Shown here: in pieces, positions 4,844 to 28,802 of the stretch | Layout: each line of letters begins with the position of its first letter | How positions within the stretch are numbered: the stretch's first letter is position 1 | Origin: Candidatus Blochmanniella floridana | GTDB lineage: Bacteria > Pseudomonadota > Gammaproteobacteria > Enterobacterales > Enterobacteriaceae | Direction of reading: 5' to 3' | DNA length: 32,000 nt | NCBI GenBank assembly: GCA_000043285.1 | Contig: BX248583.1 | Location: 390,001 to 422,000 of the forward strand | The notes under the pieces: model-generated | Told to the model about the DNA's origin: nothing | What the model saw: only the letters and a program-made list of their open reading frames with translations | Databases searched by the model: none | Translations under genes and position numbers: made by a program

Positions 4844-5857
4844 ATGATACCACTAAGATTATTATTTTCTACTTCATACAACCCATGGTTTAATTTATCA
4901 CTAGAAGAATATATTTTTAAAAATATGGATCAAAATCAAACCATATTATTTCTATGGAGAAATCAAAATACTATAGTTATAGGACGCTCTCAAAATGCAT
5001 GGAAAGAATGTAATACACGACGCATGAATCGAGATGGAGTAAAATTAGCTCGTCGACATAGTGGCGGTGGAGCAGTTTTTCATGATTTAGGAAATACTTG
5101 CTTTACTTTTATGTCTACGCAAAAAAACTATAATAAAAATGTATCTTTTAAAATTATTTTGGATGGATTAAATTCTTTAAATATTTCAGCAAAAATTTCT
5201 GGTCGCAATGATCTAATTATTAATACAAATCAAGGAGATCGTAAAATTAGTGGTTCTGCATATCGACAAGTATCCGATCGTCAATTACATCATGGAACAT
5301 TGCTATTAAATGTTGACATAAATAAATTATCTTATTATTTAAATCCAGATTCTAAAAAATTAAAATCTAAAGGCATTACTTCTGTAAATTCAAGAATTAT
5401 TAATCTAAATACATTACATGCTAATATTACTCACGATTTAGTATGTAATCAATTAAAAACAGCATTTTTTAATTATTATCAAACAACTGTAGAATCAGAA
5501 ATAATTTCTATAAAAAACTTTAATCATATAAAAGATTTCTCTAAACAATTTAATAAACAACGTAGTTGGCAATGGAATTTTGGAAACACCCCATCATTTT
5601 CTCACTATTTAGATAATAGATTTAATTGGGGCAGTGTAGAATTACATTTTGATATCTCTCATGGGATGATTAACCGTAGTCATATTTTTACTGATAGTTT
5701 GAATCCTGAGCCTTTAGAAGAATTATCTAAAAAATTAATTGGAATATCTTATAATGCTGTAACTATTCAACATTGCTGTCAAGAATGGACAAAAAACTGG
5801 CCTCAATTTCAAGAATTACAAGAAGTTACTCATTGGTTAATAACCAATGTCACATAA
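4844..5857 (+). CDS. lplA: Lipoate-protein ligase A
   Basis: 337 aa, collinear with remembered E. coli LplA (LRLL.S.SY.PWFNL..EE.IF..M, FLWRN..T.VIGR.QN.WKECNTRRM, ARR.SGGGAVFHDLGNTCFTFM, GDRK.SGSAYR, HHGTLLLN, WNFG..P.FSH). Confidence 0.93.
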   Translation: MIPLRLLFSTSYNPWFNLSLEEYIFKNMDQNQTILFLWRNQNTIVIGRSQNAWKECNTRRMNRDGVKLARRHSGGGAVFHDLGNTCFTFMSTQKNYNKNVSFKIILDGLNSLNISAKISGRNDLIINTNQGDRKISGSAYRQVSDRQLHHGTLLLNVDINKLSYYLNPDSKKLKSKGITSVNSRIINLNTLHANITHDLVCNQLKTAFFNYYQTTVESEIISIKNFNHIKDFSKQFNKQRSWQWNFGNTPSFSHYLDNRFNWGSVELHFDISHGMINRSHIFTDSLNPEPLEELSKKLIGISYNAVTIQHCCQEWTKNWPQFQELQEVTHWLITNVT

Positions 5858-7992: not shown

Positions 7993-8730
7993 ATGTTATC
8001 TATACATAACTTAAATGTTAGTGTAAAAGGTTCGTCTATTTTAAATAAACTAAATTTAGAAATTAGCCCCGGAGAAATACATATAATTATGGGCCCTAAT
8101 GGATCAGGTAAAAGTACATTATCTGCTGTTATTTCTGGTCAACCAGACTATATTGTAACGGATGGAACAATTCTATTTAAAAAAAAAGATTTATTATTAT
8201 TAAAACCAGAAGAACGTGCCGGAGAAGGTATTTTTGTAGCTTTTCAATATCCTATAGAGATTCCAGGAATTAGTAATCAATTATTTTTATATAGCGCTAT
8301 TAACGCTATTCGTAAATATCGAAATCAACCTCCTGTTGAACGTTTTGAATTTCTACAATCCGTGCAAAAAAAAATGCAATTACTACATATTCCAGACGAT
8401 TTACTCACAAGATCAGTAAACGTTGGTTTTTCTGGAGGTGAAAAAAAAAGAAATGATATACTACAAATGATGATGCTAGAACCAACACTATGTATTTTAG
8501 ATGAAACAGATTCTGGATTAGATATTGATGCTATCAAAATTGTTTATAATGGATTAAATTTATTGCGTAATACAACTCGTTCATTTATTATTATTACTCA
8601 TTATGAAAGAATTTTAGAATATATTAAACCTGATTATGTACATATATTACATAAAGGATGTATTATAAAATCTGGAGATTTAACGTTAGTAAAAAAACTT
8701 GAGGAAAAAGGATATGGTTGGTTATATTGA
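7993..8730 (+). CDS. sufC: Fe-S cluster assembly ATPase SufC
   Basis: 245 aa with Walker A GPNGSGKST, signature FSGGEKKRNDILQ and Walker B LCILDETDSGLD. Typical atypical-ABC SufC. Confidence 0.95.
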   Translation: MLSIHNLNVSVKGSSILNKLNLEISPGEIHIIMGPNGSGKSTLSAVISGQPDYIVTDGTILFKKKDLLLLKPEERAGEGIFVAFQYPIEIPGISNQLFLYSAINAIRKYRNQPPVERFEFLQSVQKKMQLLHIPDDLLTRSVNVGFSGGEKKRNDILQMMMLEPTLCILDETDSGLDIDAIKIVYNGLNLLRNTTRSFIIITHYERILEYIKPDYVHILHKGCIIKSGDLTLVKKLEEKGYGWLY

Positions 8731-10015
8731 TAATAAAACTCGTACATTAAATGAGTGGTATTATTTATTTAAAAAAAAGCATCCTGAATTTTCAAAAAAA
8801 AACAATAATTATTGGGAACAAAATATAATTAAATTTAATGAATCATACCACGCAATAAATGATCCTTGGAAATATTTTCCCATTGAAGAATTTTATAACA
8901 ATCAATTTATCCTCAATGAAGACGCCGCCATAAATTTATCAACATATAATAAATTACGTTTAAATATAGATTGTTATAGATTAGTATTTATTAACGGCCA
9001 ATTCTCATGTACATTAAGTGATCTAAATATAAATCCATGGATATTAAAAATTGATAACAATCTCAATTATTGGAATACATCAAAACCTATTCGTCCAACA
9101 ATGTTTTTATATTTAACTGAATATTTAAGCGATGTTGTAATACGAATTACATTACCTGAAAAAAAAATTACAAAAAAACCGTTATATTTATTGTATATTA
9201 ATTCAGGATCTGATACACCTAATGCATTAGCTATGTCACACTCTTATCATTACTTAGAAACAGGACAAAACACTGATGCATATGTTATCGAACATGTTGT
9301 AAACATAAATGAATATGCACACTTTAGTGGATCAAGAATGTTAATGTCTATAGGAAATAAATCAAAATTCAATCATGTTAAATTAATACTTAAAAATCAA
9401 TCTAGTTATCATATATCACATCAAGATATGCATATAAATTCATGTTCAGATGTACATAGTAATACTTTTGTTATTGCAGGCTCAAAATTTACATATCATC
9501 AAATCAGTTCTAAAATAAATTATTCAGAATCTTCTATATCATTAAATAGTTTAACTATTTTATCTGAAAGAAATATTAGTAATATGCGTACGTATATAGA
9601 ACATAATAATCAAAATTGTTCTATAAGCAGACAACTACATAAAATTATTGCTAGTGATTATAGCACTGGTATATTTGATGGTTTAATTAAAGTTAATCCA
9701 CATTCAATAAAAACGGATGGAAAAATGATTAACAATAATTTACTACTCAATAAAACTGCTTCAATATATACTATACCTAAACTTGAAATATACTCTGATT
9801 CGGTACAATGTAATCATGGATCTACAGTTGGGCATATAGATCTTAATCATTTATTTTATTTAAGTACACGAGGTATCTCTAAAAAAGATGCTATCAAAAT
9901 GTTAATAGATGCTTTTACTATAGAAAATATAAAAAAAATTCAAAATCTATCATTACAAAAAATAATAGCAGATAAAATAAAAAACGTTTTAACAAAAAAA
10001 ATAATATTTTTATGA
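8714..10015 (+). CDS. sufD: Fe-S cluster assembly protein SufD
   Basis: Position between sufC and sufS. The C-terminal SufB/SufD-family beta-helix region is recognisable (TDGKM.NN.LL....S....P.LEIY.D.V.C.HG.TVG..D...LFYL..RGI....A). ATG at 8714 is preferred to the TTG at 8699. It overlaps the sufC end by 17 nt. Confidence 0.85.
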   Translation: MVGYIDNKTRTLNEWYYLFKKKHPEFSKKNNNYWEQNIIKFNESYHAINDPWKYFPIEEFYNNQFILNEDAAINLSTYNKLRLNIDCYRLVFINGQFSCTLSDLNINPWILKIDNNLNYWNTSKPIRPTMFLYLTEYLSDVVIRITLPEKKITKKPLYLLYINSGSDTPNALAMSHSYHYLETGQNTDAYVIEHVVNINEYAHFSGSRMLMSIGNKSKFNHVKLILKNQSSYHISHQDMHINSCSDVHSNTFVIAGSKFTYHQISSKINYSESSISLNSLTILSERNISNMRTYIEHNNQNCSISRQLHKIIASDYSTGIFDGLIKVNPHSIKTDGKMINNNLLLNKTASIYTIPKLEIYSDSVQCNHGSTVGHIDLNHLFYLSTRGISKKDAIKMLIDAFTIENIKKIQNLSLQKIIADKIKNVLTKKIIFL

Positions 10016-11736: not shown

Positions 11737-11804
11737 TAGAATCTAACACAATACTCCCGCCACTCAATATTTATTGAGTGGCGGGAGTATTGTGTTAGAT
11801 TCTA
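11737..11804. terminator. 68-nt palindrome (33-bp perfect arms, 2-nt TT centre) between convergent sufE and lpp. Probable intrinsic terminator, with the U-tract on the lpp (minus) side.
   Basis: 11737-11769 (TAGAATCTAACACAATACTCCCGCCACTCAATA) is the exact reverse complement of 11772-11804. The core is GC-rich (CTCCCGCCACTC). On the minus strand the stem is followed by ATTTATTTTATG. On the plus strand an A-run follows instead. Confidence 0.75.
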
Positions 11805-11821
11805 AAAATAAATATTATATT

Positions 11822-12058
11822 CTATTTTTTATAAATAGATATCTGATTATCCAGTCGTTTATTAGCTCTATTTGCTTCGTTTTTAATTTGTTCAATTGCA
11901 GGATTGAGTACATTTATATTTTCATTTACTTGATCAATTTTTCTATTTAACTTCTGTATTTCAGAAGACAATTCTGTTATTTGAGAAGTACTAGCACAAC
12001 CTATTAATATTAATGAACTGATAGTTAGCGTAAAACATATTAACTTTCTAAAATTCAT
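11822..12058 (-). CDS. lpp: Major outer membrane (Braun) lipoprotein Lpp
   Basis: 78 aa, MNFRKLICFTLTISSLILIGC with lipobox L-I-G-C. Coiled-coil body collinear with E. coli Lpp (..I..LSS.....N.K.DQ......ANRANKRLDN...YKK) and a C-terminal Lys. GGAG Shine-Dalgarno 8 nt before the ATG at 12058, so the ORF-track start at 12079 is rejected. Confidence 0.92.
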   Translation of the reverse strand: MNFRKLICFTLTISSLILIGCASTSQITELSSEIQKLNRKIDQVNENINVLNPAIEQIKNEANRANKRLDNQISIYKK

Positions 12059-12613: not shown

Positions 12614-13222
12614 ATGTTTTCAGGTATTATACAGGCTGTTGTTCCTGTACATACAATTTACGAAGAACTTAATTTCAAAACATATGTGGTTATTTTTCCT
12701 CAACATTTATTATCCAATATAAAGATTGGTTCTTCTATATCTAATAACGGATGTTGTTTAACAGTAATTACCATTCAACATAATTATGTTAGTTTTAATC
12801 TAATACATGAGACATTGAAATTAACCAACATGGGTATATTACAAGCAGGAGATTTAATTAATGTAGAAGAACCAATTAAGTACCATAAAAAAATTGAAGG
12901 CCATTTAATGACTGGACATATTGATTGTACAGGAGAAATTAAAAAAATAATACATTATAAAAAAAACAAAACAATATGGATTAAAATGAAGAACAAATAT
13001 TATCAAAAATATATTATACAAAAAGGATCTATTGGGATAGACGGAGTAAGCTTAACCATCAATAAAGTATTAGGTATTTATATACGCATTTGTTTAATTC
13101 CATACACTATAAAAAAAACTACTTTAGGAACAAGGAAAATTGGTGATATAGTGAATATTGAAATCGATTTTTTTGTAAAGACCATTACAAATACAGTAGA
13201 GAGAATATTATCAAATATTTAA
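12614..13222 (+). CDS. ribC: Riboflavin synthase (alpha chain)
   Basis: 202 aa, MFSGIIQ....V, NGCCLTV, H.MTGHI, KGSIGIDGVSLT.N and IPYT...TTLG. The internal two-fold repeat is typical of riboflavin synthase. The gene is called ribC in E. coli and ribE in other nomenclatures. Confidence 0.93.
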   Translation: MFSGIIQAVVPVHTIYEELNFKTYVVIFPQHLLSNIKIGSSISNNGCCLTVITIQHNYVSFNLIHETLKLTNMGILQAGDLINVEEPIKYHKKIEGHLMTGHIDCTGEIKKIIHYKKNKTIWIKMKNKYYQKYIIQKGSIGIDGVSLTINKVLGIYIRICLIPYTIKKTTLGTRKIGDIVNIEIDFFVKTITNTVERILSNI

Positions 13223-13704: not shown

Positions 13705-14376
13705 TTATTTATGATAACCTTCGTTGTTTGTAATCAACGAAGGTTTCCATGGCCATCCCCCAAGTTTTTTCCAAGCATTAACTAATGTACAAAATAAAAT
13801 AGCAGTTTTTTCAGCATCATATAAAGCAGAATGTGCTTTATTTTTATCAAATATAATTCCTGCATATTCACAAGCTTTAGATAATACAGTCTGCCCAAAT
13901 ACTAATCCACTCAAAGCAGCGGTATCAAATGTAACAAAAGGATGAAATGGATTATCTTGAATATTATTAGTACGTTCTGTTGCTGCCATTAAAAAACTAT
14001 GATCAAAAGAAGCATTATGTGCAACTATAATAGCTTTATTACATTGTTGAGCTTTAATTCCTACATGTACCATTTTGAAAATTTCAACTAATGCTTCTTG
14101 TTCTGTTACCGCAAATCTTAAGGGACTATTAGGATTAATTTTATTTAATGCTAGTGCCTCAGGTTGCAAAATAGCTCCCGGAAACGATTTAATATGGAAA
14201 TGTAACATGTTATCTACGTGTAACCAACCATCTTCGTTCATCTTTAAAGTAATGGTTGCAATTTCTAATAAAGCGTTCGTACTAGCATTTAGTCCTGACG
14301 TTTCAACATCAATGACAACAGGATAAAATCCTCTAAATCTTGCTTTCAGAGTATCAATATTAACTGGATCAATCAT
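13705..14376 (-). CDS. rnt: Ribonuclease T (DEDDh 3'-5' exoribonuclease)
   Basis: 223 aa collinear with E. coli RNase T ([90 protein letters not shown]). It has a C-terminal extension relative to E. coli. Confidence 0.95.
13716..13745. other. Hairpin (11-bp perfect stem AACCTTCGTTG/CAACGAAGGTT, 8-nt loop) at the convergent grxD/rnt junction, lying inside the last codons of rnt
   Basis: 13716-13726 is the exact reverse complement of 13735-13745. It lies 22 nt past the grxD stop and 9 nt before the rnt stop codon. No U-tract follows on either strand, so a classical terminator role is uncertain. Confidence 0.5.
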
Positions 14377-16391: not shown

Positions 16392-17684
16392 ATGAAATAT
16401 AATAACTCAATTCATATGATTGATAATATTATTGATTATTTATATGAACGCGGTTCAATCGCTCAAATTACTGATCGAAAAAAATTAAACGCAGTATTAA
16501 ACTCACAACCAATCACCTTATACTGTGGATTTGATCCAACAGCCGATAGTTTACATATAGGACATTTAGCCCCTTTGTTATGTTTAAAACGATTTCAAAA
16601 AGCAGGACATCGTCCACTAATTTTATTAGGAGGAGCAACTGGTTTAATTGGAGATCCTAGTTTTAAAGATTCAGAGCGTAAACTTCAATCATTTAACACA
16701 ACACAAAAATGGATAAAAAAAATAAAATTGCAAATTGCTTTATTTATTGATTGTAATAGTAATAATGCATCACAAGCACATATTATCGATAATTATTCAT
16801 GGTTTTCTTCTATGAATATCTTAACTTTTTTAAGAGATATAGGAAAATTTTTTTCTATCAATAAAATGATTAATAAAGATATTATAAAAAAAAGATTAAA
16901 AAATGATAATTATGGAATTTCTTATACTGAATTTTCATATAATTTAATGCAAAGTTATGATTTCGCACATATATATAAACATTATGATGCAATATTACAA
17001 ATTGGAGGATCAGATCAATGGGGTAATATTATATCAGGAATTGACTTGATTAAACGCATGTATAAAAAAAATGCTTATGGATTAACAGTACCGTTACTAA
17101 CTAATTTTAATAACATAAAGTTTGGAAAAACAGAAAAAAATACAATATGGTTAGATCCTGAAAAAACTAGCCCTTATCAATTTTATCAATACTGGATAAA
17201 TATTGATGATAAAAGTGCATATCACTTTCTAAAGATTTTTACTGATATCTCTGTACAAGATATAAATTCATTTAAAAATAGAGATCATAGTTATTCACAA
17301 GCTCAATATATATTAGCAGAAAATATGACACAATTAGTACATGGAAAAAGGGGATTAAATATAGCACAACGTATTAGTCAAAATCTATTTTCTTATAACA
17401 TATTAAAATTAACATTAAATGATTTTCATCAATTAATTCAAGATGGCATTCCAAACATAATATTAGAAACAAATACTTCATTACAAGAAGCATTAACAAA
17501 ATCAAAATTAGCAACATCTCGATCGCAAGCTCGATATTTTATTAAATCTAATGCAATAACTATAAATGCACATAAACAATCAAAAATAGAATATATTTTT
17601 CAAGATTCAGATCGAATATATAATCTGTATACTTTATTAAAAAGAGGTAAAAAAAACTATTGCCTTATTCAATGGAACATATAA
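16392..17684 (+). CDS. tyrS: Tyrosine--tRNA ligase
   Basis: 430 aa with the HIGH motif (LHIGHL) and KMSKS-type KFGKT. GGATGLIGDPSFK, IGGSDQWGNI.SGIDL and the C-terminal S4-like domain ...LLKRGKKNYCLI.W match E. coli TyrRS. The start could alternatively be the ATG at 16413. Confidence 0.95.
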   Translation: MKYNNSIHMIDNIIDYLYERGSIAQITDRKKLNAVLNSQPITLYCGFDPTADSLHIGHLAPLLCLKRFQKAGHRPLILLGGATGLIGDPSFKDSERKLQSFNTTQKWIKKIKLQIALFIDCNSNNASQAHIIDNYSWFSSMNILTFLRDIGKFFSINKMINKDIIKKRLKNDNYGISYTEFSYNLMQSYDFAHIYKHYDAILQIGGSDQWGNIISGIDLIKRMYKKNAYGLTVPLLTNFNNIKFGKTEKNTIWLDPEKTSPYQFYQYWINIDDKSAYHFLKIFTDISVQDINSFKNRDHSYSQAQYILAENMTQLVHGKRGLNIAQRISQNLFSYNILKLTLNDFHQLIQDGIPNIILETNTSLQEALTKSKLATSRSQARYFIKSNAITINAHKQSKIEYIFQDSDRIYNLYTLLKRGKKNYCLIQWNI

Positions 17685-17742
17685 GTATTGATAATGGATT
17701 GTTTATATAAACAATCCATTATCAATACTTATATGTTCCATT
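17671..17742. terminator. 72-nt perfect palindrome (36-bp arms, no spacer) spanning the stop codons and last codons of both tyrS (+) and nth (-). The U-tract is on the plus (tyrS) side.
   Basis: 17671-17706 (AATGGAACATATAAGTATTGATAATGGATTGTTTAT) is the exact reverse complement of 17707-17742. TTTT follows at 17743-17746. The tyrS stop is at 17682-17684 and the nth stop at 17729-17731, both inside the arms. Confidence 0.8.
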
Positions 17743-18370
17743 TTTTATCAAATTCACATAAATCATTAATAATACAGTTATTACAATCTGGATTTTTAGA
17801 TTTACAAGTATAACGACCATGTTTTACTAACCATCGATGGCAATTTCTTTTAAATTCTCTTGGAACTACTGACATTAACTTTCGCTCTACAGCAATAACG
17901 TTATGACCAGAAGCGAAACAACTACGATTACAAAATCGGAATACATGAGTATCTACTGCAATAGTAGATAAACCAAAACAAACATTTAAAATAATATTAG
18001 CAGTTTTTCTACCTATTCCAGGTAAAGACTCCAATTCTAATCGTTTTTTTGGTACAATACCATTGTATTGATTTATTAACAAATTGCAAATCTTAATAAG
18101 ATTTTCGGATTTTGAATTAAATAATCCAATACATTTAATATGCTGTTTAACACCATCTACACCTAAATTCAACATAGACTGAGGAGTATTAGCAATCTTA
18201 AATAAATTCTTAGTAATTTTATTAACTTGAACATCTCGAGCCTGAGCTGATAACAACGTTGCAACAAGGCACTCAAACACAGAATGATAAACCAAATCAT
18301 CTTGATCATGCATATCATAATTATAATTTTTCAATCTACATAAAATCTGATAACGCTTCAAATTATTCAT
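17729..18370 (-). CDS. nth: Endonuclease III (DNA glycosylase/AP lyase)
   Basis: 213 aa with the HhH-GPD motif LPGIGRKTANIILN, IAVDTH.FR and the 4Fe-4S ligand pattern C-x6-C-x2-C-x5-C (CKSKNPDCNNCIINDLC). Collinear with E. coli Nth. Confidence 0.95.
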   Translation of the reverse strand: MNNLKRYQILCRLKNYNYDMHDQDDLVYHSVFECLVATLLSAQARDVQVNKITKNLFKIANTPQSMLNLGVDGVKQHIKCIGLFNSKSENLIKICNLLINQYNGIVPKKRLELESLPGIGRKTANIILNVCFGLSTIAVDTHVFRFCNRSCFASGHNVIAVERKLMSVVPREFKRNCHRWLVKHGRYTCKSKNPDCNNCIINDLCEFDKKWNI

Positions 18371-19943: not shown

Positions 19944-21986
19944 ATGATTATATATAATCTAAATACTCACATTAAATCTTTTCTAGTATTTACCTTAATT
20001 ATAAAATTAATAATGCTAGATTCCCTAGCGTATTATAATTGTATATCTAAATTTGATACGCATAAATTCATTCATGCTTATACATATAACAATATAACTA
20101 ATACATATGACATATATCAATCTAAAATCAATAAATTATCACTAATTAATATTAATAAAAACAACAATAATATTAATTACTATTACTTTTCAAATAATAA
20201 TACTGTATTACTATCAGAGTATTATAAATATAATAATCAATCTCAAATACAAATAAAAAATGATTCAATAGATTTCTTTCATGTATTGTTAGAATATCCA
20301 TGGAATATGCAATACAAAAAAATCTTATACTTTCTGCAAATAGGGATGAAAAATTTTACAGAAAATAAAATGATTGTTTTTGGCAGCGGAAAAAGATTAG
20401 TTTATAATAAAAAACATATTATAGGATATAATGCTTGTTATCATCATCCTATATCTACTATACAATCTCAACCATATTCTATAAATATTGGAGGTGAATA
20501 TTGGTATCGAAATTTAAAATTTATATTCAATAATTATTATAATATTAACGAAATTTTTTACTCTTATAAGAATATATCGAACCATCATTATTATCAGTAT
20601 CCAAAAATTGGATATCAAATCTGTGCAAAAAGTAATTTTCCATATATCTCAGAATTTATAGGACAAATAAAATTTGAACAATGCGTTTACGATAAAACCA
20701 GAAACAATATACGATTTTGGAATGCGAATAATAAGAATCACATTCTATGTGTAAGCTTAGAATATCAACCTATTCCTATGTTTAATCTATCCATCAACAA
20801 TCGTTTTATATATAAAAAATATTGTAATACTTTTTTCACAATAACATTAAATTATCAATTTCATGTACCGTTAAAACAACAACTCAATAATGTAAATAAT
20901 AATATACAACAAAATAAAATAATATTTAATAATCATCTCAATTCCATACTAAACCCCTTCATTCCTTCTATTGATCCATATTTTATTAAAACTAACAATT
21001 CTAATGAAATTTTATTGACACAATCAAATAATGAAATAATCGGATATCCTGGAGAAAGAAAATTCATTCAAATTGAAGACTATAAAACAAATATACAATG
21101 GAATTACGAATCATTAAAAAAACAAGGCGGAAAAATTTTTCATATACACAATAATCTATATGAAATACATTTACCTAAATCTACTCATTCTATAACAGAT
21201 ATATTTCTTACTTATATTTCGGAATTAAATATAGATAATACAATACATTATACGCAACAAAAAATAAGTATTATTACAAAAAATCCCGACGAACGACAAT
21301 TACAGAATATTCAGTTAGATAGCATATATCCTGATAATATACAAGACAATCCACAATTATTTGTTACTCAGGATACAATCCCAATCAGTAATACCAGTCA
21401 AAATAATCAAAATAAGCAACTTTATGATAATGATATTACTTCAAATAATACCATATCTTCCCAAGATAACAAAAGCAATGAAAAAGATGATACAAAAACG
21501 ATTATTACACTTAATGACGACAATGATAACAATTCAAATGATTTTAACAACATACCTACGCCACCACCAATGTTATTATCTTCTAATAAGTTCGAACTTG
21601 CACAACCACCCCTATTAAGATCATTGTCTCTATCTACTATACAACAAGAAAAAAAGATTGATTTAAATACAACAGATATAAACAAACATAGTGGTCAATC
21701 CTCACTTACTGTACAACAAGATAAGTATGATGATGAAAATCAATATCATTCTAATCATAATATAAATGAATCAAATAACACTGATTTAGCTTGTCGTTTA
21801 TTAATACATAAAAAAACTAATTTTTTATCAATCAATACAAATGCATATGTAGAAAATTTAGAAAAGTCTATATTAGAAAGAAAAAAAATCAAACGTATGA
21901 GTGATATGGAAAAGATTTTTAATAAATTACGTATTACTCAATCACAGTCATCTATTGATGAATCTACAACAACAGATGACAGTTAA
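19944..21986 (+). CDS. Putative inverse autotransporter (intimin/invasin-family outer-membrane protein). It has an N-terminal hydrophobic leader, a beta-barrel-like region at about aa 115-313, one invasin-like proximal passenger segment, then an N/D/Q-rich low-complexity C-terminal half.
   Basis: Uninterrupted 680-codon ORF. Ordered motifs match remembered invasin/intimin beta-domains: LLEYPW..ILYFLQIGMKN....FGSGKR; SINIGGEYWYRNLKFIFNNY; FPYISEFIGQIKFEQCVYD; SLEYQPIPMFNLSI; ITLNYQFHVPLKQQL; then NIQWNYESLKKQGGKIFH. There is no obvious Shine-Dalgarno, so the start codon is uncertain. No search was run. Confidence 0.6.
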   Translation: MIIYNLNTHIKSFLVFTLIIKLIMLDSLAYYNCISKFDTHKFIHAYTYNNITNTYDIYQSKINKLSLININKNNNNINYYYFSNNNTVLLSEYYKYNNQSQIQIKNDSIDFFHVLLEYPWNMQYKKILYFLQIGMKNFTENKMIVFGSGKRLVYNKKHIIGYNACYHHPISTIQSQPYSINIGGEYWYRNLKFIFNNYYNINEIFYSYKNISNHHYYQYPKIGYQICAKSNFPYISEFIGQIKFEQCVYDKTRNNIRFWNANNKNHILCVSLEYQPIPMFNLSINNRFIYKKYCNTFFTITLNYQFHVPLKQQLNNVNNNIQQNKIIFNNHLNSILNPFIPSIDPYFIKTNNSNEILLTQSNNEIIGYPGERKFIQIEDYKTNIQWNYESLKKQGGKIFHIHNNLYEIHLPKSTHSITDIFLTYISELNIDNTIHYTQQKISIITKNPDERQLQNIQLDSIYPDNIQDNPQLFVTQDTIPISNTSQNNQNKQLYDNDITSNNTISSQDNKSNEKDDTKTIITLNDDNDNNSNDFNNIPTPPPMLLSSNKFELAQPPLLRSLSLSTIQQEKKIDLNTTDINKHSGQSSLTVQQDKYDDENQYHSNHNINESNNTDLACRLLIHKKTNFLSINTNAYVENLEKSILERKKIKRMSDMEKIFNKLRITQSQSSIDESTTTDDS

Positions 21987-22018
21987 TATAATATATAAAA
22001 ATATATTAATAATAAAAA

Positions 22019-22118
22019 AAGCAAATCTGAATCTTGGCTAGGAATAAATCAACAAAACCATTGTGATTAATCACAATGGTTTTGTTGATTTATTCCTAGC
22101 CAAGATTCAGATTTGCTT
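22019..22118. terminator. 100-nt perfect palindrome (50-bp arms, no spacer) between the 680-aa ORF (+) and ubiX (-). The right arm encodes the last 16 codons of ubiX, and the ubiX stop codon sits at the palindrome centre. The U-tract is on the minus (ubiX) side.
   Basis: 22019-22068 (AAGCAAATCTGAATCTTGGCTAGGAATAAATCAACAAAACCATTGTGATT) is the exact reverse complement of 22069-22118, checked base by base. An A-run at 22011-22018 gives a U-run after the stem on the minus-strand transcript. Confidence 0.8.
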
Positions 22119-22666
22119 AAGGGATCAGAATAAATACCAAATAAATTTAACATTCTTATTACACTATAGTATACAATATCATCTATAGTTTTAGGATTTG
22201 TATAATATGCTGGAACTGGAGGCATAATTACAGCTCCAAATTCAGCTAATTTTACCATAGTTCTCAAATGCCCCACATGTAAAGGAGTTTCTCTAATTAT
22301 TAAAACTAATTTTCTTTTTTCTTTCAACATAACATCCGCAACACGACTAATTAATGATGACGTCACACCTGATTTAATTTCTGACATTGTTTTAATTGAA
22401 CACGGAGCTATCAACATCCCTAAAGTTTTATATGAACCACTAGATATAATGGCCCCAATATCTTGAGAAAAATATACAAAATCTGCCATTTTTTGTATAG
22501 ATTGACGATGAATATTTAGTTCGTGTTTCAATGTAACTAAAGCATTACGTGTTACAACAAGATGAGATTCTATATTATATTTCTTCAATATAGACAAAGC
22601 TTTAATTCCATAAATTCCTCCAGAAGCTCCTGATATTCCAACAATTAAACGTAATTTTCTACACAT
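22067..22666 (-). CDS. ubiX: Flavin prenyltransferase UbiX
   Basis: 199 aa. LIVGISGASG.IYG, SSGS..TLGM.I.PCSIKT, V.LKE.R.LVL..RETPLH.GHLR.M...AE.GAVIMPPVPA.Y matches E. coli UbiX. The C-terminus is a few residues longer than in E. coli. Confidence 0.94.
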   Translation of the reverse strand: MCRKLRLIVGISGASGGIYGIKALSILKKYNIESHLVVTRNALVTLKHELNIHRQSIQKMADFVYFSQDIGAIISSGSYKTLGMLIAPCSIKTMSEIKSGVTSSLISRVADVMLKEKRKLVLIIRETPLHVGHLRTMVKLAEFGAVIMPPVPAYYTNPKTIDDIVYYSVIRMLNLFGIYSDPLSKSESWLGINQQNHCD

Positions 22667-22729
22667 AATTACCTTCCAATATCAAAATAATACAATATTT
22701 TTCATCTATCAAATATTTATCAACACATA

Positions 22730-23506
22730 TTAATTACTAATTAAAAATAGCTCATTAACCTTCCTTAATGACTCTGGAGTATCTACACTGATATTACGTA
22801 TATTATCCATTACAGACACATATATTGTTTCTCCATTCCATAGTATTCGTAATTGCTCAAGCATTTCATATTTCTCTAACGAACTTTTAATCCAGTTCAT
22901 ATAACGACTCAGAAAATTAACACGATAAGCATAAATCCCAATATGACGTAACCATATACCTAATTCTTGATTGAAATCATGATTAATGCTCATCCAAGGA
23001 ATCATCGAACGAGAAAAATATAAAGCAACACCATATATATTTACAACAACTTTAACGATATTACTATCTATTACTTCGTTATAAAAAAATATTGGAGTAG
23101 CTAACGTTGATACACTAATATTATTAGAGGTAGTCATATTAAAAACATCAACTATTTGATGAATCATATATGATGAAATTAAAGGTTCATCACCTTGTAA
23201 TTGTACAATGATTTGATCATCTGCAAATCTATAACGTTTAACGATTTCTGAAATACGTTCAGTTCCTGATTGATGATCAGAGTAAGTTAAACACACTTCA
23301 ACTTTATCTCCAAAAGAATAATATTCATACTCAACTATTTGTTTTATAGAAACACTATCAGTAGCTACTATTATTTTAGTAGTTTTAGTGGTTAACGCCT
23401 TTTCTATAACTCGTATAATCATAGGTTTACCCTGAATATCAGCCAACAATTTTCCAGGAAAACGAGAGGAAAAAAACCGAGCAGGAATAATGATTATAAA
23501 ATTCAT
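22730..23506 (-). CDS. kdsB: 3-deoxy-manno-octulosonate cytidylyltransferase (CMP-Kdo synthetase)
   Basis: 258 aa. IIIPAR..S.R.PGK.L.DI.GKPMI, HQSGTERI.E, VQLQGDEPLI, ALYFSR..IPW, RH.GIY.YR, LE..EMLEQLR.LW.GE.I.V match E. coli KdsB. Confidence 0.94.
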   Translation of the reverse strand: MNFIIIIPARFFSSRFPGKLLADIQGKPMIIRVIEKALTTKTTKIIVATDSVSIKQIVEYEYYSFGDKVEVCLTYSDHQSGTERISEIVKRYRFADDQIIVQLQGDEPLISSYMIHQIVDVFNMTTSNNISVSTLATPIFFYNEVIDSNIVKVVVNIYGVALYFSRSMIPWMSINHDFNQELGIWLRHIGIYAYRVNFLSRYMNWIKSSLEKYEMLEQLRILWNGETIYVSVMDNIRNISVDTPESLRKVNELFLISN

Positions 23507-23694
23507 TGGTTATCTATAATTTTGCAATTCAAATATCGAATTTGATTTTTTAATAAAACTGGAATTCCTTGTTTTAGAGGAAAACTAATGTTCTCAATAT
23601 TACAAATTAATTCTGTTTCTGTATCATTCATAAATAACCGTGTATAACAAAAAGGACAAACGATAATTTCTAATAATTTTTTTTGCATAATCAC
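23503..23694 (-). CDS. ycaR: Trm112/UPF0434-family small zinc-ribbon protein YcaR
   Basis: 63 aa. LLEII.CP.C...L.......ELIC......FPL..GIPVLL matches E. coli YcaR. ATGA overlap with kdsB, and lpxK-ycaR-kdsB order as in E. coli. Confidence 0.88.
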   Translation of the reverse strand: MIMQKKLLEIIVCPFCYTRLFMNDTETELICNIENISFPLKQGIPVLLKNQIRYLNCKIIDNQ

Positions 23695-23749
23695 ACACTA
23701 TCATCATTAATATGTCACAATTATAAAATTAATGCTCAAACACTCCATT

Positions 23750-24751
23750 TTAATTATTTTTATAATACTGAATTGTACTCTCTATCTTAGATAATAATTT
23801 TTTTGTATCTTCTTGATGTATGTTAACATCTATATGTACATACCACCAGTTTTCATGCGCAAAATCTAAACATTTAATAGCATCTTTTTCTGTCATTAAT
23901 AACATTTCATTTCCAGAAGTAAGAGAAGATAACATTATTTCAGAATACATATGATGATCAGAAAATTCTATTGTTTTGATAGGAAAAATTCCATAATCTT
24001 GTAAAGTCATAAAAAATTGCTTCGGATATCCAATTCCAGCTATAGCTACAACGTCCTTCAATGGTTGAATAGGTCGAATCTCCCCTGTTACAAGATTAAT
24101 TATTGATCTAGGACATAACTGCATTAGTATTGCACCAGATTGAATATCATTACTTAATCCATTAATAATAATTGCCTGCACTGTATTTAGTCGAGTAATT
24201 CGTTCACGCATAGGCCCAGCCGGTAACCAACAACCATTTCCGAAACGACGTAGACTATGTACAACCACCCACTCTATATCTCTAAAAAGAGCATAATGTT
24301 GCAACCCATCATCACTAATGATTATATCTAATAAAGGTTGCTTTTTTAATAAAGCAGATACAGCTTTAACTCTGTTAGGAGAAACAGATACTAATACACC
24401 CGTCCTCCTCCAAATAAGTAATGGTTCATCTCCACATTTTTTACTACAACTAGTACTATTAATAATAATCGGATACTTATCAGACCTACCGCCATAACCC
24501 CTAGAAACTACTCCAACTCTCCAACCACGAGTCTTTAATTGATCAATTAACCATAATACCATGGGAGTTTTTCCGTTACCTCCAATAGTTAAATTTCCAA
24601 TAACTATAATAGGCACTGAAAATCGATATACTTTACGCCATCCATATTTATAACTAATGCGATTTAACGTACTGAAAAATCCATATACCCAAGAAAAAGG
24701 AAGTAAAAATAAATAACATAATGATGAACCAAACCAAATATTAAACAACAT
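23750..24751 (-). CDS. lpxK: Tetraacyldisaccharide 4'-kinase (lipid A biosynthesis)
   Basis: 333 aa. LLPFSW.YG, P-loop VIGNLT.GGNGKTP.V.WL, VVSRGYGG, GDEP, DDGLQHY.L.RD.E, RRFGNG.WLPAGPMRE, MTEKDA.KC, ENWWY match E. coli LpxK. Confidence 0.94.
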   Translation of the reverse strand: MLFNIWFGSSLCYLFLLPFSWVYGFFSTLNRISYKYGWRKVYRFSVPIIVIGNLTIGGNGKTPMVLWLIDQLKTRGWRVGVVSRGYGGRSDKYPIIINSTSCSKKCGDEPLLIWRRTGVLVSVSPNRVKAVSALLKKQPLLDIIISDDGLQHYALFRDIEWVVVHSLRRFGNGCWLPAGPMRERITRLNTVQAIIINGLSNDIQSGAILMQLCPRSIINLVTGEIRPIQPLKDVVAIAGIGYPKQFFMTLQDYGIFPIKTIEFSDHHMYSEIMLSSLTSGNEMLLMTEKDAIKCLDFAHENWWYVHIDVNIHQEDTKKLLSKIESTIQYYKNN

Positions 24752-26502
24752 CAGGAAAATTGAAATTTATATAACTGAGAATAAACACCTTTATGATTTA
24801 ATAAATCCACATGTATTCCTCTTTCCACAATAGATCCTCGTTCAACTACTAAAATTTCATCCGCATTTTCTATAGTAGATAAACGATGTGCAATAATTAA
24901 TGATGTTCTATTTTTCTTTAATATATTAATAGATTTATAAATAATACATTCAGATTCAGTATCCAAAGATGAAGTAGCTTCATCTAAAATTAAAATAGGA
25001 CAATTTCTTAATAAAGCCCGAGCAATTGCAATACGTTGACGTTGACCATTAGATAACAATATACCATTTTCTCCAACAATAGTATCAAACCCATTCTTCA
25101 TTTTAGAAATAAACCCCATAGCATACGCCATTTTAGCTGCTTCTTCAATAGAAGCCCTAGAATAAAATCTTGTACGTGCATATGCAATATTATTTGCAAT
25201 AGTATCATTAAATAAATATACATTTTGTGTAACTACAGATACTTGTTCTCTCAAAGAAGTAAGTGTATAATCATTTAAATTTAATCCATCAAGCAATATA
25301 CGACCCTGATACACATCATAAAAACGAGTTAATAAATTTACAATAGTAGATTTTCCAGATCCAGATCTTCCGACTAATGCTATAGTTTTTCCAGATTCAA
25401 TATTAAAATTGATATTACATAAAGATGGAGTATTTGTTTCAGGGTAAAAAAAAGTAACATTATCAAAAATAATATGTCCTTTAACTCTTTTAACGCTAAA
25501 TTTACCTATATTTTTTTCAGTTTTTAAATCTAAAATAGTAAACAAAGTTTGACAAGCTACCATTCCACGCTGAAATTGCGCACTAACATTAGTTAAAGAC
25601 TTTAATGGTTTCATTAATGCTATCATGGATGAAAAAATAACAGTAATTGTTCCAGCACTAAGCATTTCTATAACACTAGGAATACTTGCTATATATAATA
25701 CACAAGCCAATGCTAATGAAGCAACAAACTGAATTAATGGTTCAAATACAGAAGACGTTTGAACCATTTTCATAGTATATTGTCTCATACGATTACTTAA
25801 ATAATTAAATCTATTTTGCTCAAGATGTTGACCTCCAAATATTAACACTTCTTTATGACCTTTTAGCATTTGCTCTACACTATTTACAAGTTGACTCATA
25901 GAATTCTGTATCTTTTTTCCAATATCTTTAAATTTATTGGATACTAACTTAATAATTATGGATATTATCGGCATAATCAAAATTAAAACTAACGATAATT
26001 GCCAACTGTAATAAAACATCATAATACATAACCCAACAACAGATGCTCCTTCTCGAATGATAGTAATTAAAGCTCCAGAAGATGATGATGCAACTTGATC
26101 TGCATCATAAGTAATACGAGACATTAAAGTAGCAGTAGATTGTTCAATAAAAAAAGAAACCGGCATGTTCATTATATGATTAAACAAAAGTCTTCTAATA
26201 TGCATTACCACTTTTCCAGATACCCATGATATACAATAAGTTGACGCAAACCCACTCATCCCGCGCATAATCATTAAACCCATCAATACCAAAGGCATCC
26301 ACATAAAAATCGACCTATTAGCTTTCCCGAAACCTTCATCAAGCAACGGTTTCAACAACGCTAACATTAAAGAATCACTTACTGCATTTATAATTAAAGT
26401 AATAGACGCTATAATTAATCCTATTTTAAAGGGATTAATTATAGGCCAAAGACGCCGAAAGACTTTCCAATTTGATATATTACCATTATTGCAGTAATGC
26501 AT
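24751..26502 (-). CDS. msbA: Lipid A export ABC transporter (flippase) MsbA
   Basis: Collinear with E. coli MsbA from W..FRRLWP.I.PFK.GLI through Walker A GRSGSGKST, signature LS.GQRQRIAIARA and Walker B ILILDEATS.LD to the C-terminal KFQF. ATG at 26502 (583 aa) is preferred to the TTG at 26514. The TGA stop shares one base with the lpxK ATG. Confidence 0.94.
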   Translation of the reverse strand: MHYCNNGNISNWKVFRRLWPIINPFKIGLIIASITLIINAVSDSLMLALLKPLLDEGFGKANRSIFMWMPLVLMGLMIMRGMSGFASTYCISWVSGKVVMHIRRLLFNHIMNMPVSFFIEQSTATLMSRITYDADQVASSSSGALITIIREGASVVGLCIMMFYYSWQLSLVLILIMPIISIIIKLVSNKFKDIGKKIQNSMSQLVNSVEQMLKGHKEVLIFGGQHLEQNRFNYLSNRMRQYTMKMVQTSSVFEPLIQFVASLALACVLYIASIPSVIEMLSAGTITVIFSSMIALMKPLKSLTNVSAQFQRGMVACQTLFTILDLKTEKNIGKFSVKRVKGHIIFDNVTFFYPETNTPSLCNINFNIESGKTIALVGRSGSGKSTIVNLLTRFYDVYQGRILLDGLNLNDYTLTSLREQVSVVTQNVYLFNDTIANNIAYARTRFYSRASIEEAAKMAYAMGFISKMKNGFDTIVGENGILLSNGQRQRIAIARALLRNCPILILDEATSSLDTESECIIYKSINILKKNRTSLIIAHRLSTIENADEILVVERGSIVERGIHVDLLNHKGVYSQLYKFQFS

Positions 26503-28772: not shown

Positions 28773-28802
28773 TTTTTCATCATCATCCATGATGATGAAA
28801 AA
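28773..28802. other. Hairpin-forming inverted repeat (TTTTTCATCATCAT-CC-ATGATGATGAAAAA) in the cmk-rpsA spacer
   Basis: 28773-28786 is the reverse complement of 28789-28802 (14 bp, 2-nt centre). It lies 14 nt downstream of the cmk stop and about 68 nt upstream of the rpsA start, on the transcribed (minus) strand of both. Confidence 0.35.

Follow-up and report, generated by a model that had tools for sequence, protein, structure and literature searches.

A perfect palindrome at the end of ubiX

We analysed a 32,000-nt stretch of the genome of Candidatus Blochmanniella floridana (B. floridanus; contig BX248583.1, positions 390,001 to 422,000), referred to below as the window, around a 100-nt perfect palindrome at the 3' end of the ubiX gene. 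The gene order tyrS-nth-fumC-eaeH-ubiX-kdsB-ycaR-lpxK-msbA in the window corresponded to Bfl371-Bfl379 of B. floridanus (PMC3017870 gene table), and the close UbiX homologues all came from Blochmannia, the obligate endosymbiont of carpenter ants. The open reading frame (ORF) at 22067..22666 on the minus strand (ubiX, Bfl375) encodes a 199-aa UbiX-type flavin prenyltransferase/flavoprotein (Pfam PF02441, E=2e-38) and closes the co-directional cluster msbA-lpxK-ycaR-kdsB-ubiX, as judged from the PMC3017870 gene order and from syntenic loci. Its convergent neighbour on the plus strand is an eaeH-like inverse-autotransporter ORF (Bfl374, 19944..21986; Pfam PF11924 and the gene table), whose stop codon lies 32 nt before the palindrome.

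The palindrome is real. A repeat finder and an independent scan both returned two arms of 50 nt, 22019-22068 and 22069-22118, which were 100% complementary with a gap of 0, and the symmetry centre (22068|22069) falls inside the TAA stop codon of ubiX (22067-22069). In the ORF reading, the right arm (22069..22118, minus strand), the putative template arm, holds two nucleotides of the ubiX stop and the last 16 codons (SKSESWLGINQQNHCD). The left arm (22019..22068), the derived, inverted copy of the ubiX 3' end, occupies part of the spacer between eaeH and ubiX and finishes on the T of the ubiX TAA. The longest perfect arm in 30 Markov-1 simulated windows was 9-15 nt, so chance is excluded for arms of 50 nt.

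The hairpin was very stable both as RNA (-79.7 kcal/mol, z = -17.8) and as DNA (-55.9 kcal/mol, z = -19.7). Read on the ubiX strand, UUUUUAUUAUU comes immediately after the stem, which itself takes up two more U residues of the run as paired bases. This U/T-rich tract (GC-UUUUUUU-AUUAUUAAU) covers 22005..22020 on the minus strand by sequence and fold, with 22019-22020 in the stem. On the eaeH strand the stem is followed by AAGGGAUCAGAA, with no U-run there. The initial annotation had described a perfect, loop-less palindrome with the stop codon at its centre, a coding right arm, a left arm that is its inverted copy and a U-run on the ubiX transcript, and all of these points were confirmed.

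The eaeH ORF at 19944-21986 is 680 aa long and very Asn-rich, and its only Pfam match is the inverse-autotransporter beta-domain at residues 92-323. Its length among relatives ranged from 600 to 749 aa.

The same junction in other Blochmannia lineages

Syntenic loci were compared in seven other lineages, namely L081/L082 (the closest), L083 (B. vafer), L084, L085, L087, L088 and L089 (the symbiont of C. nipponensis). These relatives were reached through protein matches and their encoding contigs; a fumC-anchored scan of genome contigs returned only Enterobacterales at ≤65% identity and no Blochmannia. At the ubiX/eaeH junction no long inverted repeat was found in any of the seven lineages, and the left arm had no counterpart in the spacers of L081, L082, L083, L085, L087, L088 and L089. 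The relatives' ubiX-eaeH spacers folded no better than shuffled sequence (z -0.76 to +1.4), and with unstructured spacers in seven lineages the strong selection for the stem that the initial annotation had proposed finds no support.

Two of the Logan contigs, L084 (13 kb, end 10612) and L088 (44 kb, end 10734), stopped 6 nt and 143 nt past the ubiX stop codon, respectively. A structure in the spacer between ubiX and eaeH may have broken the assembly there in these lineages, or coverage may simply have dropped.

When 26 UbiX proteins from Blochmannia were aligned, W189 and G191 were invariant and the 'WLGI' motif was largely conserved; past this motif the tails varied freely in length and sequence. 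The UbiX C-terminus also aligned with PDB 1sbz (...HPYAR--RWQGLPQ with ...DPLSKSESWLGINQ), which bears out the earlier claim that ESWLG corresponds to the E. coli-type ...RWQG C-terminus. When the arms were searched by BLAST against the window and ten Blochmannia loci, the coding arm matched relatives solely at the homologous ubiX codons. Because of this conservation, the 1sbz alignment and the restriction of matches to ubiX codons, the right arm is taken as native coding sequence and the left arm as its copy; at the level of sequence comparison the right arm is established as ancestral and the spacer arm as derived.

On the ubiX strand, homology with L081 ran through the coding arm and resumed at the T-run and beyond. 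The T-run of the window with its distal flank, GCTTTTTTTATTATTAATATATTTT, is homologous to AGTTTTTTATTAATTTAATATATTTT in L081, where the hairpin is absent, and the T-run is therefore older than the palindrome. The ubiX/eaeH spacer is 80 nt long in the window and 89 nt long in L081. Since homology resumes at the T-run, the copy arm replaced the stop-proximal part of the old spacer, and the similar spacer length likewise fits a replacement better than an insertion.

Other palindromes in the window

The ubiX palindrome, which the initial annotation had treated as a singular oddity, proved to be one of three long perfect palindromes in the window (arms of 50, 36 and 33 nt) and a member of a class of 20 published for this genome. 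The next best arms, of 14 nt, were within the simulated range. The second palindrome (17671..17742) is spacer-less and 72 nt long, with 36-nt arms, and lies at the convergent tyrS/nth junction, where the final three codons of each gene, with the stop (WNI*), lie in one of the arms. No long inverted repeat was found in the four relatives that reach the nth/tyrS junction. TyrS ends in CLI[QTK]W[E/K] in relatives and in WNI in the window; Nth ends in DKKIL*, MKKFFGF*, KEKK* or KEKQIYII* in relatives and again in WNI* in the window, so that only the window lineage has this ending on both proteins. TyrS natively carries the W, whereas in Nth it is foreign, so the reverse complement of the tyrS terminus has overwritten the end of nth. 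The tyrS/nth spacer is 44 nt long in the window and in L081, and the L081 spacer carries a short palindrome, TTTATATATAAA, which is a candidate seed.

The third palindrome (11737..11804) is 68 nt long, with 33-nt perfect arms, a 2-nt loop and a GC-rich core (CTCCCGCCACTC), and lies between the convergent genes sufE and lpp (lpp at 11822-12058, minus strand), with its T-rich flank on the lpp strand. It could be compared in one relative, since a SufE homologue was recovered from B. vafer only; the B. vafer sufE/lpp junction had no palindrome, and an 11-mer, CTAACACAATA, was common to its spacer and the left arm in the window. As relatives lack a palindrome at the homologous junctions, a stable hairpin is not a conserved requirement there, and each of the three originated on the B. 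floridanus branch. Their lineage specificity is thus established, as far as alignment of the sampled loci can do so.

The window contains 4 convergent, 3 divergent and 24 tandem junctions, and palindromes were present at 3/4 convergent junctions and 0/27 others (Fisher's exact test, p = 8.9e-4). Convergent spacers make up 233 nt of 3,621 nt of intergenic sequence and contain all three palindromes. The three share no sequence, and each arm occurred once in the window apart from its partner (BLAST). All 119 stem pairs were Watson-Crick pairs. A T-rich flank was present on one strand only in each of the three, and none of them shows the pattern of a bidirectional terminator, with an A-tract before and a U-tract after the hairpin. 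Rfam returned no family match to the palindromes, and a known-RNA reading was rejected.

At the fourth convergent junction, grxD/rnt, an imperfect hairpin with 19-nt arms (84% complementary) lies inside the extended rnt 3' end (13711..13750). RNase T (rnt) has a tail of 14 aa past the conserved GGWP, compared with 2-11 aa in relatives, and the grxD-rnt spacer is 10 nt long, compared with 64-152 nt. The rnt ORF thus seems to have been extended into a former spacer hairpin. At the rnt 3' end (13705-13750) the tail runs through the imperfect hairpin. Elsewhere, the cmk-rpsA spacer (28773-28802) holds a perfect hairpin with 14-nt arms and a 2-nt loop (TTTTTCATCATCAT CC ATGATGATGAAAAA), at the upper edge of the simulated range.

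Palindromes were also found in L089, at 8535-8583, 18105-18154, 12827-12874, 5200-5263 and 9797-9854, with arms of 23-30 nt that were 100%, 100%, 96%, 90% and 85% complementary, respectively. The perfect ones have 24-nt arms and lie in one tandem and one divergent spacer. Since L089 has palindromes of its own, the process that makes them is genus-wide, with lineage-specific sites that are not always convergent. In the divergent slyA/rnt spacer, unrelated perfect palindromes were present in L081 (15826-15868, 20-nt arms) and L089 (18105-18154, 24-nt arms), and this spacer may be a recurrent palindrome site or a regulatory region.

A proposed origin by template switching

We favour an origin at the DNA level, in which replication template switching produced the palindrome as an inverted duplication specific to this lineage, not a structure conserved from ancient times, which is tolerated in the absence of SbcCD, RecA, MutSL and other functions and incidentally gives a hairpin followed by a U-run. 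The probability of this reading is put at roughly 0.54. The nascent strand, having copied the end of ubiX, would fold back at the short palindromic centre at the stop codon (GATT|AATC, core TTAA), would then be templated by itself or by the opposite strand for ~48 nt, and would switch back near the existing A/T run. Such an event would be an intramolecular template switch of the quasipalindrome type, and would put the final 16 ubiX codons, in reverse complement, in place of the stop-proximal part of the ubiX-eaeH spacer. The tyrS/nth and sufE/lpp palindromes would have been made in the same way, with the last codons of nth overwritten. As a consequence, the msbA-lpxK-ycaR-kdsB-ubiX transcript would have gained a 48-bp hairpin directly before an older U-run.

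We infer template switching because there is little length change, one arm is ancestral, a short candidate palindromic seed is present and the pairing is Watson-Crick only over 119 pairs; any role in termination is inferred likewise. At ubiX, one arm is ancestral and the other replaces ancestral sequence that is not homologous to it. The seed at the ubiX centre is TTAA/ATTAAT, which contains the stop codon; no relative has that tail, and a seed in a relative was seen for tyrS/nth only. A TAA stop preceded by T is by itself a minimal seed, and the position of the stop codon at the centre is therefore less remarkable. Quasipalindromes are known to be converted by template switching into inverted repeats that are 'perfect or more perfect' (PMC7202029), and it has been suggested that the mechanism also preserves the perfection of such repeats during evolution (PMC5941160).

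Persistence and perfection of the palindromes would follow from the lack of SbcCD, RecA, RecJ, ExoVII and MutSL in Blochmannia, together with the tolerance of gene 3' ends and convergent spacers to rewriting. Read from gene names, the three-genome Blochmannia table lacks sbcC, sbcD, recA, recJ, xseA, mutS and mutL, and contains recBCD, sbcB and polA. The initial annotation had singled out sbcCD as the genes to look for, and both are among those missing. SbcCD is the nuclease that acts on hairpins and cruciforms, and long palindromes are stably propagated in sbcC mutants (work cited in PMC4787754).

The perfection of the arms also bears on their age. If palindromes of random age decayed by point mutation only, similar numbers would be expected with 0, with 1 and with 2 or more mismatches. 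All three long palindromes had zero mismatches, and no long palindrome of 85-97% identity was present in the window. With n=3 this is suggestive: it favours palindromes that are young, that are quickly deleted or that are corrected again and again from a template, and does not favour a slow decay offset by selection on RNA pairing. The 'continual arm-to-arm correction' of the initial annotation is still a live explanation. L089 shows a decay series, and the balance may differ between lineages.

A wider proposal, which we put forward tentatively and which may well not hold, is that 'palindromisation' is ongoing in this lineage without SbcCD, RecA and mismatch repair. Palindromes of 70-100 bp would form from AT seeds, mostly at convergent junctions, rewriting C-termini and creating terminators de novo beside T-runs. 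If so, the WNI tail shared by TyrS and Nth and the tails of UbiX and RNase T, encoded by hairpin arms, would be its products, and new terminators could arise through mutation in this way while the genome loses its other regulatory elements.

Several points weigh against the template-switch origin. The palindrome is represented by a single assembly: exact-product look-ups (UbiX, eaeH, Nth) and an exact 30-mer metagenome scan returned no second copy. The evidence for the template-switch event itself is indirect, and the nearest relatives by which to date the palindrome (L081/L082) have a UbiX 79% identical. The tandem and divergent positions of the L089 palindromes suggest that the convergent bias may not be general.

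A possible role in termination

On the ubiX strand the palindrome has the form of an intrinsic terminator, a stable hairpin followed by a U-tract, and on the eaeH strand it does not. When ribosomes are off its 5' arm, the hairpin would probably function in intrinsic termination or as a hairpin at the 3' end. It is plausible that such a role is a secondary consequence and not the reason why the palindrome exists. A short GC-rich stem (~5-14 bp) with a loop of 3-8 nt outside the translated region is not what lies here; the stem has 48 bp and ~32% GC, with the stop codon in its apex. A consensus terminator scan, limited to stems of ≤20 pairs and hence uninformative for the ubiX site, reported only the tyrS/nth palindrome. 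The initial annotation had read the stem and U-run as an intrinsic terminator. The arrangement on the ubiX strand stood, but the U-run is no sign of design, given an ancestral run and a T-rich background.

Evidence that counts against a termination role, or weakens the case for it, comes from several sides. The U-run predates the hairpin, and the hairpin, absent in relatives, is not required at the junction. A T-rich flank was present at 47.5% of random intergenic positions in the window, so that 3/3 palindromes having one has a probability of about 0.11. The genes rho, nusA and nusG have been kept, and few genes in the table evolve more slowly than rho. RNase III (rnc, Bfl540) is present, as are tmRNA/SmpB. 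A 48-bp perfect RNA duplex is a substrate of RNase III, and the cut would fall inside the ubiX reading frame. Finally, the 5' arm is translated, a position that represses terminators in E. coli: a terminator a few bp past the stop codon or late in the coding region is largely repressed by the ribosome (PMC4824070). The geometry therefore argues for weakened as much as for regulated termination. The idea of the initial annotation that termination is coupled to translation may still be called mechanistically reasonable.

Alternative explanations

The alternative that survives best, possible although we think it unlikely, is that the palindrome is a pure mutational by-product without function. 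Template switches at AT seeds would survive where they are harmless, at 3' ends and in promoter-free convergent spacers, and would later be deleted, and the combination of hairpin and U-run would be coincidental. The absence of the palindrome at the homologous junctions of all sampled relatives fits this view, as do the ancestral T-run, the frequency of T-rich flanks (47.5%), the retained Rho machinery and an RNase III that would cut the stem. The Nth tail was overwritten and the rnt tail extended with no sign of benefit, and the L089 palindromes occur in all spacer types. On the other hand, tolerance by itself hardly explains why all three palindromes fall within 233 nt of convergent spacer when large tandem and divergent ones are available, and Williams & Wernegreen argued that palindromes would decay without selection (PMC3017870).

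Less probable still is a selected RNA structure, as held by the initial annotation and by Williams & Wernegreen (2010), in which purifying selection would act for termination or insulation of convergent transcription or for mRNA stability, with termination possibly tuned by translation of the 5' arm. The position at the end of the msbA-ubiX cluster, the U-run on the ubiX strand and the enrichment at convergent junctions in the window all fit such a role. Control of transcription or stabilisation of mRNA has been suggested in print (PMC3017870), and terminators are sensitive to nearby ribosomes (PMC4824070). However, the structure is not conserved in any relative, and its 48-bp stem goes far beyond what termination needs; the eaeH strand lacks a U-run, and RNase III is present. 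Selection on pairing tolerates G-U pairs and mismatches, yet 119/119 pairs are Watson-Crick, which points to a DNA-level process or a very recent origin.

A sequencing or assembly artefact, in which reads from two sides were joined within the hairpin or a central spacer was collapsed, is very improbable. It would draw on the palindromes of B. vafer, which impaired Sanger reads and Velvet assembly (PMC3017870), and on the single assembly of the locus. The contig of a near-identical strain, L086, ends before ubiX, 6 nt ahead of the start codon and ~550 nt short of the palindrome. E. coli cloning, however, tends to delete palindromes and not to create them. The three palindromes are independent, and all of them have a gene junction at their centre and leave the ORFs and stop codons to either side intact; the class was verified by full Illumina read alignment in B. 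vafer (PMC3017870); and L089, an independent complete genome, has perfect palindromes with 24-nt arms.

The L086 contig (Logan SRR11554989), found by a kdsB look-up, corresponds to window positions 22672-25085 and is 99.5% identical (2,415 nt compared, with 10 mismatches and 1 gap), which shows that public reads include a second strain of this symbiont.

REP elements of enterobacteria typically take the form of palindromic repeats at the ends of genes (see also bioRxiv 10.64898/2026.03.23.713779). An inserted mobile or repetitive element (REP, MITE or RPE-like), to which such repeats would point, has next to no probability and is effectively refuted by the BLAST search of the arms, which were mutually unrelated and unique in the window and the ten Blochmannia loci apart from the homologous ubiX codons; one arm is moreover native coding sequence, and Rfam gave no match.

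Relation to published Blochmannia palindromes

Williams & Wernegreen (2010; BMC Genomics 11:687, PMC3017870) searched three Blochmannia genomes with EMBOSS palindrome (repeats of 30-1000 bp, gap ≤20, ≤3 mismatches) and reported 20 palindromes of 62-104 bp in B. floridanus, all but two of them at least partly in intergenic spacers. The authors proposed roles in the control of transcription or in mRNA stabilisation, and argued that selection must maintain the palindromes. In B. vafer, neither Sanger reads nor Velvet assembly got through such palindromes, and it took the full set of Illumina reads to resolve them (PMC3017870); three variants lie inside a B. vafer palindrome (PMC3268670). The ubiX palindrome, with its 50-nt arms, gap of 0, 0 mismatches and left arm in a spacer of B. 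floridanus, falls within all of the 2010 search settings. The class is therefore already known, and almost certainly this instance is too.

Nor are the mechanisms invoked here new, whether template switching, the loss of SbcCD or intrinsic terminators that overlap stop codons. What is added is detail: which arm is the original and which the copy, the restriction to one lineage, a U-run older than the hairpin, protein tails that were rewritten or extended (Nth, TyrS and RNase T, possibly also UbiX) and the local convergent bias. This comparison sharpens the question raised in 2010, whether palindromes are kept by selection or are mutational debris. A templated origin at the DNA level is favoured over selection at the RNA level because the palindromes are lineage-specific and locally built, one arm is ancestral and C-termini were overwritten. 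If the convergent bias holds genome-wide, Blochmannia would be a natural system for template-switch mutagenesis, for the tolerance of palindromes without SbcCD and for terminator birth in reduced genomes.

Comparison with known systems

The closest counterparts are the palindromes of PMC3017870, which are of the same class and from the same organism; the available text and supplements of that paper come without positions, junction types, arm polarity or a cross-species comparison.

Intrinsic terminators (PMC4824070) resemble the ubiX site in that a transcription unit ends with a stable hairpin and a U-run right behind it, and the position of the ribosome is expected to modulate folding. They differ in their stems, which have ~5-14 bp and are GC-rich, compared with 48-50 bp and ~32% GC at ubiX, where the whole 5' arm is translated. 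The ubiX hairpin is also unconserved in relatives and has a U-run on one strand only, and its role in termination is putative.

Because long palindromes are unstable in E. coli (PMC4787754, PMC3315005), a spacer-less one of 100 bp is unusual for an enterobacterial relative, and the loss of sbcCD permits it. The E. coli work, mostly on 246-bp palindromes, concerns tolerance only and is silent on origin and function.

Quasipalindrome template switching (the Ripley model; E. coli lacZ quasipalindrome reporters, PMC7202029; PMC5941160) offers the likeness on which the proposed origin is built. Known events fix a few bases in pre-existing quasipalindromes of ~10-20 bp, whereas ~30-50 nt would have been templated in Blochmannia, possibly in several steps. 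Unlike the documented events, the formation of the Blochmannia palindromes overwrote coding sequence. In the known system, perfect repeats are copied from arm to arm at the DNA level from short inverted-repeat seeds, as is proposed for Blochmannia, and it is this kind of arm copying that would account for pairing that is Watson-Crick only and for the replacement of sequence without a large change in length.

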